64,000 nt of DNA, from positions 186,938 to 250,937 of the forward strand of contig CACIRX010000001.1 in assembly GCA_902589175.1 (NCBI GenBank), given 5' to 3'. Positions 5,180-10,219 of the stretch are shown here, one piece after another (positions within the stretch are counted from its first letter, which is position 1; the number at the start of each line of letters is the position of its first letter). A model generated the notes under the pieces. The model did no database searches. It was not told the DNA's origin and worked only from the letters and a program-made list of their open reading frames with translations. Source of the DNA: an uncultured Pelagibacteraceae bacterium. Its GTDB lineage: Bacteria; Pseudomonadota; Alphaproteobacteria; Pelagibacterales; AG-422-B15. The position numbers and the translations under genes are program-made.

Positions 5180-6574
5180 CTATGAAGAAGAAATCATTTT
5201 TGATGGATTGAGAAGAGACTTCATCTTTCTCACATCAATATATTTTAGCATTTTATTTGCCTCAATTAGCGTAATATTTTTCTTATGTGCAAGCTTTGCG
5301 AGTTCTGCAGCTTTTTCGTACCCAATCTCAGGGGCAAGAGCAGTCACGAGCATTAAAGAGTTCTCAACACCTTCTTTTATATTTCTTAAATTCGGTTTAA
5401 TTCCCTTTAGGCACTTATCGCAAAAGTTTGTAATCCCTGAGGATAATAAATTGATTGCATTAATTATGTTAAAACCAATTACTGGTTTAAATGCATTAAG
5501 TTCAAAATGACCTTGAGTTCCTGCCATTGATATTACGTTATGACTACCCATAACCTGTAAACAAGCCATTGTTAAAGCTTCACTTTGAGTTGGATTTACC
5601 TTACCAGGCATTATAGATGACCCGGGTTCATTCTCAGGTAAATTCAGTTCTCCTAGACCTGATCTTGGTCCAGAAGCTAACAGCCTAATGTCATTTGCTA
5701 TTTTGAAAAGATCCGTTGCAATAACATTTAATACTCCCGATAGTTCTACAAGAGAGTCATGAGAGGCCAAGGCTTGGAATTTATTGTTTGCAGGTTTAAA
5801 TTTAATTTTATTAATTTTACTTATTTCATTTGCAACAAGTCTATCGAACCCTTTTTTTGTATTCAGACCTGTTCCAACGGCCGTCCCTCCTTGGGCTAAA
5901 TAATTTAAGTTAATCAGAGCTGTCTTCAGTCGTTTAATGTTCATATCAATCTGAGATTGATAACCTGAAAATTCTTGTCCAAGTGATAAGGGAGTTGCGT
6001 CTTGCAAGTGTGTCCTACCGATTTTGATGATACTTTTCCATTTCTTAGACTGGCTACCTAAAGTTTTTTCCATTTCATTTAAAGCCGGAATAAGTTCATC
6101 TGTAACTTTTTTTGAGGCCGCAATATTAATTGCAGATGGAAAACTGTCATTAGTTGATTGACTTTTGTTGACATGATCATTCGGGTGAACTGGACTATTC
6201 GTTCCAAGTTTTCCGGTAAGTTTTTTATTGGCAAGATTAGCGATGACTTCATTTACATTCATGTTAGTTTGAGTTCCAGATCCAGTCTGCCAAACCGAAA
6301 GAGGGAATTGATCATCATGCTTACCGGTAAGAATATTTTTTGATGCACTAATTATTGCATTTGCTATTTTAGGAGCTAAAGACTTTTGTTTTTGATTTAC
6401 TTTCGCGCAGGCCATTTTTATTGTGACTAGTGCATGTATAATCTCTATAGGCATTAAATTATTGCCAATTTTAAAATTCTTTAATGATCTTTGAGTTTGA
6501 GCTCCCCAAAAATTACTATTTGAAACTTTTATTTTGCCGATACTGTCTTGTTCTTGTCTTGTTTTTTGATTCAT
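5180..6574 (-). CDS. fumC: Class II fumarate hydratase
   Basis: GAQTQRS, QTGSGT, HPNDHVN, GRTHLQDA and the GSSIMPGKVNP signature. Confidence 0.98.
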   Translation of the reverse strand: MNQKTRQEQDSIGKIKVSNSNFWGAQTQRSLKNFKIGNNLMPIEIIHALVTIKMACAKVNQKQKSLAPKIANAIISASKNILTGKHDDQFPLSVWQTGSGTQTNMNVNEVIANLANKKLTGKLGTNSPVHPNDHVNKSQSTNDSFPSAINIAASKKVTDELIPALNEMEKTLGSQSKKWKSIIKIGRTHLQDATPLSLGQEFSGYQSQIDMNIKRLKTALINLNYLAQGGTAVGTGLNTKKGFDRLVANEISKINKIKFKPANNKFQALASHDSLVELSGVLNVIATDLFKIANDIRLLASGPRSGLGELNLPENEPGSSIMPGKVNPTQSEALTMACLQVMGSHNVISMAGTQGHFELNAFKPVIGFNIINAINLLSSGITNFCDKCLKGIKPNLRNIKEGVENSLMLVTALAPEIGYEKAAELAKLAHKKNITLIEANKMLKYIDVRKMKSLLNPSKMISSS

Positions 6575-6646: not shown

Positions 6647-6662
6647 AGTGGGAGACTTCTGT
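6647..6662. repeat. Copy 1 of 16-bp direct repeat AGTGGGAGACTTCTGT (tmRNA 3'-end duplicate, att-like)
   Basis: Exact match to 8947-8962. Confidence 0.95.
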
Positions 6663-6819
6663 TTTTCTCACATATTTGAAATATAAGACTATATCTCATT
6701 ATTCAATTCTTCGTTACAGACTTCGTTGCAAGTTTGCGTGATTCAGCACAAACTCTGTTTTCTGACTTCTTTAAAATCTAATTTATAGTATAGTTTTTTT
6801 GTATAAAATTAGTGAATAC

Positions 6820-7779
6820 GTGAAAAAAATTATCTTATCTTTCATATTAATTTTCATCTTTCCATCATATGCACCAGCACTCGATAGTTATGGTATTTAT
6901 GAGGCGCTGAATAAATCAATAGTTAGAATAAACATATGGCAGGATTTTGAGAGTGATAACGCCTATACAATTACTGGGGGGAGTGGGGTCGTTATCAATG
7001 AAAAAAATGGTGTTTATTTTATATTAACTAATGCTCATGTTTTACTGGAAGAATTTTGTTTAGTTAATGAAGACGGTTGTATAGAAAAAATTTGGGGCGA
7101 AGATTTTACAATTGCAATTGATACACCGGATACAGAATTTGAATATCCAGTAAATAATAACGACTTTATGTATTGGTCTGATTATGATTTTGCCGTGATA
7201 AGAGTTGATATGAATAATTATATTATAGAAGATCAATATCATGATTTTAGTCCTATTGCGATTGGTGGCAATTGGCACCCTCTAATGAGTGTGTATGGCG
7301 CTGGTTTTCCATCTATTTTAGGAAATTACGATAAAGATTATGCTGAATTAGTTTTCTGCTCTGGAGTTGTTAATACAATGTTCATGGATGAAGATTCCTT
7401 ATACCAACTTGGTAATTATTCTATCGCGCATAGTTGTACGTTAGCAGGAGGCATGAGTGGTGGACCACTTGTCGATGATGAAGGGTTATTACTTGGAATA
7501 AATGGATTATCTGGAGGAGAAGAACTCTACACTGATGAGCAGGGTAACTTAGTAGATGTTGATATTGCTTCTGCCCGATTTGATTATGCCATGGATATTT
7601 GGGAATTATATCGTCTTGAAATAATTAGTTTTGAGGATGAGGATGGTCACTTTAATCCTGATAGTCCTTTTTACGAGTATTTGCCAAAGTTATCTTATGA
7701 TTACCATGCCGACTTTTATGATAGTTATGTTGAGTTATATCCGGAGGAAATAGATAAAACTAGATTGCTATTTGACTAA
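6820..7779 (+). CDS. Secreted trypsin-like (S1) serine protease, strongly acidic
   Basis: TNAHV (His), DFAVIR (Asp), GGMSGGP (Ser); signal-peptide-like N-terminus from GTG 6820; D/E-rich. Confidence 0.85.
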   Translation: MKKIILSFILIFIFPSYAPALDSYGIYEALNKSIVRINIWQDFESDNAYTITGGSGVVINEKNGVYFILTNAHVLLEEFCLVNEDGCIEKIWGEDFTIAIDTPDTEFEYPVNNNDFMYWSDYDFAVIRVDMNNYIIEDQYHDFSPIAIGGNWHPLMSVYGAGFPSILGNYDKDYAELVFCSGVVNTMFMDEDSLYQLGNYSIAHSCTLAGGMSGGPLVDDEGLLLGINGLSGGEELYTDEQGNLVDVDIASARFDYAMDIWELYRLEIISFEDEDGHFNPDSPFYEYLPKLSYDYHADFYDSYVELYPEEIDKTRLLFD

Positions 7780-7791
7780 ATAAAATAGTGA

Positions 7792-7807
7792 AGTGGGAGA
7801 CTTCTGT
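7792..7807. repeat. Copy 2 of the 16-bp tmRNA-end repeat
   Basis: Exact 16-mer. Similarity to tmRNA extends to 7818 (25/27 identical: ...TTaCCCtGTGTC versus ...TTgCCCgGTGTC). Confidence 0.95.
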
Positions 7808-7827
7808 TACCCTGTGTCCTCTAAAAT

Positions 7828-8061
7828 TTATTTTTCATCTTCTTTTGTTGCCTGTATATATAAATAACCTCCTATTCCGAAAATAATCGGAAAAAAAGGG
7901 ACTGGAAAAAGAATCCAAGATATTATCTCTCCATCAGAAAAAGTTAAGTTTATCCAGTTGTATACATCAGGCAAAATCGGATAATTGCCAAACGTAGTTA
8001 TATAGATAACACCTACAGCTCCTCCTATAAAAATATATAGAATTAGTTTCTTATCAGTCAT
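7828..8061 (-). CDS. Small two-TM membrane protein of unknown function (paralog of 8124-8348)
   Basis: YIFIG..VGVIYI..FGN.P.LP and P.P.FPI.FGIGG.LY are shared with the neighbouring ORF. Confidence 0.8.
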   Translation of the reverse strand: MTDKKLILYIFIGGAVGVIYITTFGNYPILPDVYNWINLTFSDGEIISWILFPVPFFPIIFGIGGYLYIQATKEDEK

Positions 8062-8123
8062 TTTTTATTATTAATATTTGAAAATAGAATTGTTTAGCAA
8101 AGTTTTATCTAAATTTATTATTC

Positions 8124-8348
8124 TTAATCTTCTTTTATAGACTCAAGATATAAAGAACCCCCAATGCCAAAAAATATAGGAAAAGCAGGTATCGGATAAA
8201 GAAGTAATCCCCAAACCTCATTATCCATTGCTTTGTGCAACTCTGGTAATAATGGATCATTTCCGAACAAGTTAATATATATAACACCTACAACAAGTCC
8301 GATAAAAATATAAAACCAACGACGATTATTTAATTGTTTTTTTGTCAT
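8124..8348 (-). CDS. Small two-TM membrane protein of unknown function (paralog of 7828-8061)
   Basis: Same shared motifs; AAGGA SD-like sequence upstream. Confidence 0.8.
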   Translation of the reverse strand: MTKKQLNNRRWFYIFIGLVVGVIYINLFGNDPLLPELHKAMDNEVWGLLLYPIPAFPIFFGIGGSLYLESIKED

Positions 8349-8408
8349 GATCCTTAAATTAATTTATTTTTACTTTAAGTGCACTTTCAAAATTAGTCAT
8401 CTAAATTT

Positions 8409-8424
8409 AGTGGGAGACTTCTGT
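8409..8424. repeat. Copy 3 of the 16-bp tmRNA-end repeat
   Basis: Exact match to 8947-8962. Confidence 0.95.
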
Positions 8425-8573
8425 GCTTCGTCTTATGTCTCCTATGTCTTACTATACATCATATATTAAAAACTTCGTGCAAAACTTCGAGAAGAGAAAT
8501 TAGGGTTTTCAAAGAATTTTGTGATTATTCTTTTTTTATTTCCTCTTTTGTAAAATAGTATAAATTGAAAAAT

Positions 8574-8933
8574 ATGACTTTTGGTGAATCAATATCTACA
8601 TGTTTTAAAAAATACGTTGATTTTAACGGAAGAGCAACTCGATCAGAATTTTGGTTTTTTACTCTATTTTGTTGGATCGTAAGTTTTATTTTGCTGCCTT
8701 TAGATATCGCAATCTTTCCTTACCAGGATTGGGGACCGCTTGGTACGGCATTTTCGCTTGCAATTTTTTTTCCTTCTATTGCTGTTGGATCAAGAAGACT
8801 ACATGACTCAAACTATTCTGGTTGGTTACAACTTTTAGCAATTACCATAATAGGTTTAATTCCTCTTTTAATTTGGTTTATTCAAAAAGGGGATATTGAA
8901 GATAATCGATTTGGTTCTGATCCTCTAAGATAA
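8574..8933 (+). CDS. DUF805 (YhaH-like) inner membrane protein
   Basis: KYVDFNGRATRSEFW, RRLHD.N.SGW, N.FG.DP; ATG at 8574 (alternative TTG at 8565). Confidence 0.92.
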   Translation: MTFGESISTCFKKYVDFNGRATRSEFWFFTLFCWIVSFILLPLDIAIFPYQDWGPLGTAFSLAIFFPSIAVGSRRLHDSNYSGWLQLLAITIIGLIPLLIWFIQKGDIEDNRFGSDPLR

Positions 8934-8946
8934 TTATAGTTTAATT

Positions 8947-9202
8947 AGTGGGAGACTTCTGTTGCCCGGTGTCTCCCGAACCGCGCTTACCTAATTAGAT
9001 TAAGCAGCGAGCGCTAATTCATCGTTAGCATTTATAAAATAGCCCGATAACGGTGGTACAATACCGAGAGAAAAACTTACCTTTAAGCATTCGTCGATCC
9101 TATATCACCCCCCAATTTATGGTGGAGGTGCCGGGTACCGCCCCCGGGTCCGTAATGGGTATTACGCAAGCCGTTTATCCCTATAGCTGGGATATCCCCA
9201 GC
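8947..9202 (-). ncRNA. ssrA: Two-piece (circularly permuted) tmRNA; tag ANDELALAA
   Basis: Acceptor piece ends ...CACCUCCACCA at 9120. Coding piece starts GGGGGUG at 9112 (7-bp acceptor stem with G3.U70). Tag ORF GCT AAC GAT GAA TTA GCG CTC GCT GCT TAA at 9029-9000, preceded by ATAAAT. 3' hairpin GGGAGAC/GTCTCCC contains GGCAACAGAA. Outer ends approximate. Confidence 0.95.
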
Positions 9203-9208
9203 AATCTG

Positions 9209-9237
9209 AATATAGTTGGATATTGAGACTTTTTAAA
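9209..9237 (-). promoter_or_regulatory. Putative sigma70 promoter of ssrA
   Basis: TTTAAA-N17-TATATT on the minus strand directly upstream of the acceptor piece. Confidence 0.55.
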
Positions 9238-9283
9238 GAGAGTAATCTTAATATAGTATGTGTTTATTATTTGATTCAAAAAA

Positions 9284-10219
9284 ATGCCGGTAAACAAAGA
9301 ACAACTTGATGAAATTGAAGCCTTAAGGTCTGAAATATCAGAAACAGCTCGTGTTACAGCCCCTGAGTTAGAAGCAGTTTTGTACAGGCCAATAGAAGTG
9401 CTCGATCATGGCTTTATTCGTGTCATTGATTATATGGGGGATGACAGTTCAATAGTGCAGTCGGCAAGAGTATCATATGGTAAAGGCACAAAGAAGATTT
9501 CAAATGACAAAGGGCTTATTAAATATTTAATGAGGCACCGTCATTCAACCCCTTTTGAAATGTGTGAAATTAAATTTCATATTAAACTTCCAATTTTCAT
9601 TGCTCGACAATGGATACGACACAGAACGGCAAACGTTAATGAGTACTCGGCTCGCTACTCAATTCTTGATAAAGAGTTTTATATTCCATCAGCAGAAAAT
9701 CTGGCAGCACAGTCTGCGATCAATAATCAGGGTAGAGGGGATGCCTTAACAGATGATGAAGCCTCTAATGTTATTCAGATACTAAAAAAGGATGCCGAGC
9801 AGACATATTCTAATTACGAAACTCTATTAAATGAGAGTTCTGAGGGCAACATAATTGATGAAAGTAAATCTGGAATTGCAAGAGAATTGGCCCGAATGAA
9901 TCTTACCCTCAATACCTATACACAATGGTACTGGAAGATTGACCTGAATAATTTATTGCACTTTCTTGCTCTAAGAGCTGACGACCATGCGCAGTATGAA
10001 ATACGTGTTTATGCGGATGCCATGTTAGATATTGTAAAAAAATGGGTTCCTCTTACTTACGAAGCATTTGAAGATTATAGAATTGGTGGGACAGAACTCT
10101 CCGCCAAAGAGGTAAATCTAATGAGAAAACTTCTAAAAGGGGAGAAAGTATCTTTTGAAGAAGAAGGTCTGTCTAAAAGAGAATGGAGCGAACTGCAAAG
10201 AAAGTTTGAAATTAGTTAG
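9284..10219 (+). CDS. thyX: Flavin-dependent thymidylate synthase
   Basis: [14 protein letters not shown] (RHRX7S) motif, HSTPFE, HAQYEIR. Confidence 0.97.

Follow-up and report, generated by a model that had tools for sequence, protein, structure and literature searches.

Probable arm-type sites of a lambda-like tyrosine integrase on stacked, integrase-less gene cassettes at the tmRNA 3′ end of a SAR11 bacterium

Bacteria of the SAR11 clade (Pelagibacterales) combine a very large accessory gene pool with a near absence of recognised mobile elements. The mechanism behind their single-gene cassettes is described as unresolved in a 2026 preprint, which like all literature here is cited from excerpts. 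How such cassettes may be assembled is the question raised by a stretch of 64,000 nucleotides (the window), which comprises positions 186,938 to 250,937 of contig CACIRX010000001.1 (assembly GCA_902589175.1; genome G000, 1.117 Mb, completeness 77.7%). Three gene cassettes form a stack in it, adjoining the 3′ end of a permuted transfer-messenger RNA (tmRNA) gene and bounded by copies of a core, AGTGGGAGACTTCTGT, which is the reverse complement of the final 16 nt of the tmRNA at 8947–9241. The cores lie at 6647, 7792, 8409 and 8947. A first reading of the letters alone (the sequence-only reading) had proposed that a spaced repeat signature behind the first and the third represents element-side attachment (att) arms of a reusable cassette backbone. 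According to our analysis, these repeats are probably arm-type sites of a lambda-like tyrosine integrase, carried by cassettes that are themselves integrase-less.

The distances of the signature were reproduced. Counted from the start of the core, ACTATA lies at +41 (6688) in cassette 1 and +42 (8451) in cassette 3, the tandem CTTCG-N7-CTTCG at +62/+74 (6709/6721) and +64/+76 (8473/8485), and the start codon at +173 (6820, GTG) and +165 (8574, ATG), while the stop codons are located 12 and 13 nt ahead of the next core. The two cargo genes are unrelated, as had been assumed. A promoter-like T-tract had also been counted as common to both cassettes and has to be removed from the signature, since its pattern and offset differ (TTTTGTATAAAAT at +150 in one, TTTTGTAAAAT at +137 in the other). 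In G000, CTTCG-N7-CTTCG occurs three times on both strands (0.34 expected), two of the copies being those of cassettes 1 and 3; the control spacings N5, N6 and N8 gave 1, 0 and 0 copies. Alignment of the two leaders reached a score of 83 compared with 54.4 ± 8.5 for shuffled sequences, 2 of 1000 of which scored as high. Cassette 3 holds an extra CTTCG at +17, and cassette 1 a half-lost third repeat at 6766. Cassette 1 is of arm type A and cassette 3 of arm type E, thus representing two arm families and not one chassis. The idea of a reusable backbone stands insofar as the same arm occurs with different cargo and the same cargo behind different arms, but not for cassettes 1 and 3 as copies of a single backbone. 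ACTATA is common in the A and E arms of the host family of G000; it is absent from the type A arm of the Pelagibacteraceae, a name used here for the other host family, and thus is not part of a universal signature.

For comparison, 47 genomes of the genus and an order-wide set of 401 Pelagibacterales genomes were used. The core was found in 40 of the 47 genus genomes, and in these the interval from a fumC-like gene to the tmRNA gene was mapped. Genus units were collected by the core only, giving an unbiased, small set of 16 core-bounded units (13 without G000). Behind the cores of this set, the motif is enriched, as the sequence-only reading would require: it was present in 9 of 16 units, or 7 of 13 without G000, and in 0 of 20,000 random windows. 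Genus units without the CTTCG tandem mostly carry another tandem at the equivalent place. Three one-mismatch cores (G026, G011, G010) were left out as they lie inside an unrelated gene, alignment A3 was used without its G010 row, whose coordinates were wrong, and the unpublished genome G114 is the basis of no claim. Among the 116 metagenome loci that were listed, 24 were kept by eye as lineage-related and 92 were set aside as chance matches, other organisms or phage tmRNA; because of this selection by eye, the metagenome-based count of 18 of 44 is partly circular, and the genus count was relied on instead. The arm word alone was found in 19 stretches of viral contigs, none with a core nearby, so by itself it is not specific.

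At least five repeat words were found behind non-tmRNA cores: A CTTCGTTG, B GTGCGAAGT, C CTTCGTAG, D GTGTCTAGT, and E CTTCGTG. The sequence-only reading had suggested that integrase-bearing elements could carry the same arms, and one does: in G249, a genome of the Pelagibacteraceae, a 9,413-bp element inserted at the tmRNA has the A word of cassette 1 on both ends at equal spacing and encodes the tyrosine integrase P0072. Measured from TTCTGT, the portion common to the cores of the window and of the Pelagibacteraceae, CTTCG is positioned at +56/+68/+113 and −85/−74/−62 in G249, at +54/+66/+111 and −86/−75/−63 in an integrase-less unit of 1,001 bp (L118), at +52/+64 and, damaged, +109 in cassette 1, and at +54/+66 in cassette 3. 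The third type A repeat is intact in G010, G036, G063, L118, and L145. Repeats on both ends at fixed distances were also found in the elements of G022 and L129 and in elements at a groEL site. At the tmRNA site, the word matches the element on both ends (GTGCGAAGT with integrase P0001, GTGTCTAGT with P0018), and at the groEL-end site three further words each occur at both ends of their own element. A word that varies with the element, is present on both ends and keeps a constant distance to the crossover resembles arm-type sites as described for lambda (PMC4880445, in part). Judged from these sequence comparisons, the CTTCG tandem is likely an arm-type site.

The groEL site, a label which rests on C-terminal GGM repeats, was observed in Pelagibacteraceae, where integrase relatives are located at, and seem to target, the groEL 3′ end with a shared TTACAT (L258, L259, and L261 in G042, G051, and G355); these elements carry their specific words on both ends at similar distance. 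The type A word also occurs at this site in G121 and G055 (L255, L256), at +55/+67. More distant integrase relatives lie near tRNA-Leu (L268, L269, and L262 in G107, G060, and G068) and have tandem words of their own, e.g. TCGTACAC. At L110:661-2969, a type E-like spacer precedes another arm word, AGTGTGACCA, together with phage-like genes; this is perhaps a prophage using the identical core.

The integrase elements at the tmRNA site span 7–10 kb. Besides that of G249, these include a 9,865-bp element in G022 with the B word on both ends and a 7,059-bp type D element (L129). Each of the three encodes a protein of about 400 aa (27–34% mutual identity) and a small serine recombinase. Residues R245, K278, R355, and Y387 are invariant across 32 sequences of the integrase family. 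The predicted structure (predicted local distance difference test score, pLDDT, 89.5) has fold matches to XerA, lambda Int, and Tn1549 Int (E-values of 1e-6 to 1e-4), and its N-terminus is modelled as strands followed by a helix. P0072 matches the PHROG1 integrase (E 4.8e-13); for its N-terminal 75 aa, the feature look-alikes PF02920, PF09003, and PF14657, three arm-binding families, at a very high score, are a lead only. Pfam largely misses this family: P0001 had no integrase match, and Phage_integrase matched 3 of 17 relatives (best E 1.2e-4). Sequence searches against the PDB gave no match, and neither IMG/VR nor INPHARED yielded relatives in searches that need close matches. In the order-wide set, the family was matched in 27 of 401 genomes, with nine full-length strong places in eight genomes. 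Among the nine G022 and nine G249 proteins scanned, which are part of the open reading frames (ORFs), no helicase, primase, terminase or capsid was matched; the sole replication or packaging match was a processivity factor (a sliding-clamp-like gene). G000 itself encodes two HU/IHF-family genes, and its sole PF00589 match is a fragment on another contig, which is XerC/D-like to judge by its motif.

The target is the coding-piece end of the permuted SAR11 tmRNA. Both a repeated core at the two insertion ends and an empty site in relatives are present: among the 40 genus loci, 14 are empty (72–78 bp), nine have at least two cores and thus stacked core-bounded units, and 17 contain extra DNA without an intact distal core. 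In one marine sequencing run, possibly of the source sample, the entire array was recovered on one contig with no differences at a depth of about 10 compared with about 100 in the flanks; another run contained a loose end fitting the empty site. Type D elements (L041, G063) leave an altered left core half, GAAAGAC instead of GGGAGAC, which would alter the terminal hairpin of the tmRNA where such an element is proximal. In G172, G345, and G140 (L300, L310, L316), tmRNA-end copies form arrays and the stretch examined yielded no tmRNA gene; these arrays possibly mark a second, look-alike target site.

Across the 401 genomes of the order, the distal-arm pattern was found at 49 places, spread over 45 genomes (control: 2), and 31 of these places lie at a core copy. 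The other 18 were rejected as chance matches in coding sequence: 17 fall in one conserved, presumably trigger-factor-like sequence (nine inspected, eight judged from the printed match) and one in another. The stretch examined includes the tmRNA for 16 of the 22 core-linked genomes outside the genus. The reciprocal, proximal-arm pattern occurred 14 times (control: 8), and 12 of these places lie at a core. Units of the Pelagibacteraceae were picked up through the distal-arm pattern and hence form a biased set. Arrays reach six units, with a median unit length of 747 bp (n = 67). Also, integrase-less minis of 0.6–1.3 kb exist that have the same two arms around unrelated cargo, both arms being kept in G036, G063, L118, G388, and G275. 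Around unrelated cargo, type A arms of different species are 83–93% identical, and their similarity ends near the third repeat. Conversely, cargo is found behind different arms and in different positions. The trypsin unit of cassette 1 shares 91% identity over 1,148 nt with a cassette of G010 and is distal in G000, proximal in G010; the DUF805 protein of cassette 3 has a copy with 93% aa identity in G063, the former proximal and armed, the latter distal and arm-less. Over its first 101 nt, cassette 3 shares 88% identity with L107. The cargo of L107 is a different one, 86% identical to a gene that in G008 stands behind a type B arm. Both host families have a type E-like unit carrying the same pair of cargo genes (G070, G219). 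In L118, the distal-arm part was far deeper than the cargo in three of four runs.

In the window cassettes, no integration or transfer genes were found; both cores are kept, together with the distal arm only. Lacking the tmRNA-side arm that is present in complete elements, they represent a half-chassis. The sequence-only claim of element-side att arms thus gains comparative support from the integrase elements and falls short with respect to this missing arm. Among the units compared, 24 have a distal arm only; 21 of them carry a gene, whose ORF in 19 cases ends 10–27 nt from the next TTCTGT. Retention of a promoter does not explain this, as the distal arm is kept for both gene orientations, including units in which it stands at the cargo 3′ end (G371, G317, G378, G052). 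Gene-less stubs of about 130 bp (G070, L182, G072, G137, and read joints) look like deletions between distal and proximal arm repeats. Table 1 gives the parts of the locus. The fumC-like gene is named from its sequence. Cassette 2 (7792–8408) is of an arm-less type: its genes are co-oriented with the tmRNA, and a degenerate tmRNA tail lies close to where they end; a Pfam scan of its ORFs (7828–8061 and 8124–8348) gave no match. In many arm-less units of the Pelagibacteraceae, only 13–27 nt separate the start codon from the next core, and such units may be read through from upstream.

Table 1. Features of the cassette array and its flanks (positions in the window)
Feature	Position	Strand	Remark
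fumC-like gene, conserved left flank	5180..6574	-	72–78 bp from the tmRNA core in 14/40 genus loci
Core copy 1, distal, attR-like	6647..6662	+	Putative 6-bp overlap TTCTGT at 6657–6662
ACTATA, cassette 1	6688..6693	+	Within the AT-rich spacer separating core from arms
Type A arm repeats 1 and 2	6707..6728	+	CTTCG at 6709/6721, +52/+64 from TTCTGT
Degenerate third type A repeat	6764..6773	+	+109 from TTCTGT
Cargo 1, trypsin-like serine peptidase	6820..7779	+	Pfam Trypsin_2, E 9.5e-16
Core copy 2 with degenerate tmRNA-like tail	7792..7821	+	Arm repeats absent on both sides
Cassette 2 cargo, two small related hydrophobic ORFs	7828..8348	-	7828–8061, 8124–8348
Core copy 3	8409..8424	+	TTCTGT at 8419–8424
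ACTATA, cassette 3	8451..8456	+	
Type E arm repeats 1 and 2	8470..8491	+	CTTCG at 8473/8485, +54/+66; no third repeat
Cargo 3, DUF805 membrane protein	8574..8933	+	Pfam DUF805, E 2.1e-24
Permuted alphaproteobacterial tmRNA gene	8947..9241	-	Rfam RF01849, 242 bits; ARAGORN
Core copy 4, target site, last 16 nt of tmRNA	8947–8962		
thyX, right flank	9284..10219	+	Pfam Thy1, E 9.6e-59

Taken at the level of sequence, the window cassettes are likely non-autonomous units resembling cis-mobilisable elements (CIMEs) and moved by helper elements. The N-terminal domain of the integrase would bind the repeats, its catalytic part would cross over in TTCTGT, and a DNA-bending protein would bridge the spacer of about 50 bp. 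Each new element would land at the tmRNA end and thereby push older units outward. Two-armed minis could move in trans, excised and reinserted by a visiting integrase whose arm type matches. Loss of the proximal arm would lock a one-armed unit in place until a matching element inserts on the tmRNA side, supplies the missing arm and is co-excised with the unit; this step of cis-mobilisation is modelled on the CIME proposal (PMC5704250, in part).

Several observations speak against the integrase interpretation. In the integrase family, the first His of the usual HxxR is not conserved and the His positions are atypical. The family was not found in G000 at its completeness of 77.7%, no type A or E integrase element was found in any of the 47 genomes of the genus, the integrase of type A stems from the other host family (G249), and a type E integrase was not found anywhere in the data searched. 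The unbiased genus set is small, comprising seven distal-only units (two of them gene-less stubs), seven with both or partly both arms, one proximal-only and one with none. The window arms are eroding, the third repeat being damaged in cassette 1 and lost in cassette 3. Junctions resembling attP are present for types B and D, and these could be tandem copies or assembly loops; no such junction of type A or E occurred among the metagenome matches listed, and none of type A in four runs. Excision joints of cassette 1 or 3 were likewise missing from the run reads; as contigs drop rare forms, the absence of these joints and of a type A attP shows nothing either way. Finally, in the loci examined, no one-armed cassette stands directly distal to an autonomous element with the same arm.

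Part of this evidence would fit a history in which the repeats are arm sites by origin and the cassettes are dead remnants: larger elements would have decayed through deletion, useful cargo would have been kept, and the blocks would now spread by homologous recombination only, via fumC and tmRNA/thyX. We hold this to be unlikely, and yet passive decay with homologous recombination remains a real rival. The one-armed state of the window cassettes with their damaged third repeat, the extra DNA without an intact distal core at 17 of 40 genus loci and the existence of collapsed arm-to-arm stubs all favour it, and so does a preprint on Arctic SAR11, the excerpts of which report little sign of recent element-mediated transfer. 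It is contradicted by the high identity of the arm region around unrelated cargo with its end near the third repeat, by the differing cassette order (trypsin in G000 and G010, DUF805 in G000 and G063), and by the distal arm being kept even at the cargo 3′ end.

The remaining two explanations do without arm sites. Direct-repeat LexA boxes are known in Alphaproteobacteria, and CTTCG-N7-CTTCG might be such a transcription-factor operator, with ACTATA and the T-tract as promoter elements of the cargo; in the window, both motifs stand upstream of cargo starts, and sigma-70-like hexamer pairs lie at 6762–6809. With just three copies in the genome, repeats that also follow cargo stops and occupy both ends of elements, and words that differ between elements at a constant spacing to the crossover, this is very improbable; the T-tract may still be a real promoter. 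An integron-like array, in which each gene is followed by a folded, single-stranded attC-type site copied from the tmRNA 3′ hairpin, would agree with genes ending a few bases from a core, with the many arm-less units that have a tmRNA-like tail and a gene co-oriented with the tmRNA, and with a tmRNA end that folds as a hairpin. The distal core copies, however, fold unlike each other and unlike the tmRNA end (one notable z-score only), no resident integrase lies beside the array between its fumC-like and tmRNA/thyX flanks, and the integrases that were found, with their arm-binding-like N-terminus, belong to two-armed elements, so that we give this possibility hardly any weight.

Compared with known systems, a lambda-type integrase with heterobivalent att sites (PMC4880445) has in common with our interpretation a short core with an overlap, repeated distant sites on both arms and, as far as the structural model suggests, a small N-terminal domain joined to a tyrosine recombinase fold. 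The overlap is 7 bp in lambda and putatively 6 bp here, many arm words are used at one target, and most users of the site are integrase-less. Tandem units bounded by direct repeats at a tmRNA or tRNA end, some without integration genes and thought to move with their neighbours, are described in excerpts on CIMEs and tandem accretion (PMC5704250) and on the Dehalococcoides ssrA islands (PMC3146451). In contrast to CIMEs, which by definition keep attL and attR, the units here are mostly single genes, and the window cassettes keep one arm only; the Dehalococcoides islands rely on a serine integrase, and their tmRNA is a standard one, in place of the coding-piece end of a permuted tmRNA. [quoted passage not shown] Their excerpts deal with integrase-carrying elements and scattered remnants and describe neither arm sites nor integrase-less minis; for the helpers, the proteins scanned gave no match to a helicase, primase, terminase or capsid. 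Additive islands of SAR11 and Methylopumilus (PMC11796062, PMC10872708) also have cassettes marked by partial tRNA repeats in almost integrase-free genomes, and the excerpts name no arm sites, integrase family or mechanism. According to these sources, tandem tmRNA islands and CIMEs were known already, as were islands of SAR11 and Prochlorococcus that contain partial tRNA repeats and the marine satellites of Pelagibacter; arm sites, one-armed cassettes and the integrase family are not described in these passages. The outline of such accretion at tmRNA is therefore known, and its miniature, often one-armed form is new.

Phage genomes carry the target as well: of 12 viral matches to the core, 10 are permuted alphaproteobacterial tmRNA genes borne by phages, with a 3′ end equal to the genus core (L061:5950-6383, also L062, L063, L065–L068, L070–L072). 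That of L061 (RF01849, 117 bits) has a long intervening sequence, with a helicase loader, an exonuclease and a thymidylate synthase as neighbours. None of the ten genes had an insertion at the core.

As a tentative and rather doubtful extension, the one-armed cassette might be a working unit of SAR11 gene delivery. A satellite-like element would land beside a cassette, excise together with it through the distal arm of the cassette and insert with it in a new cell, where the element would leave alone and the single gene would stay fixed behind the tmRNA. Several arm words would then be parallel channels at one site, and phage tmRNA genes with the identical 3′ core could dock elements and ferry them between cells. 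The locus names a target, a divergent integrase family mostly missed by Pfam, likely arm sites, and natural integrase-less cargo units, which together open the question to a plasmid assay and provide a candidate site-specific insertion tool for SAR11. The reach of such a system would be one or two sites and not the entire pangenome, and by this route streamlined SAR11 cells would gain single genes.

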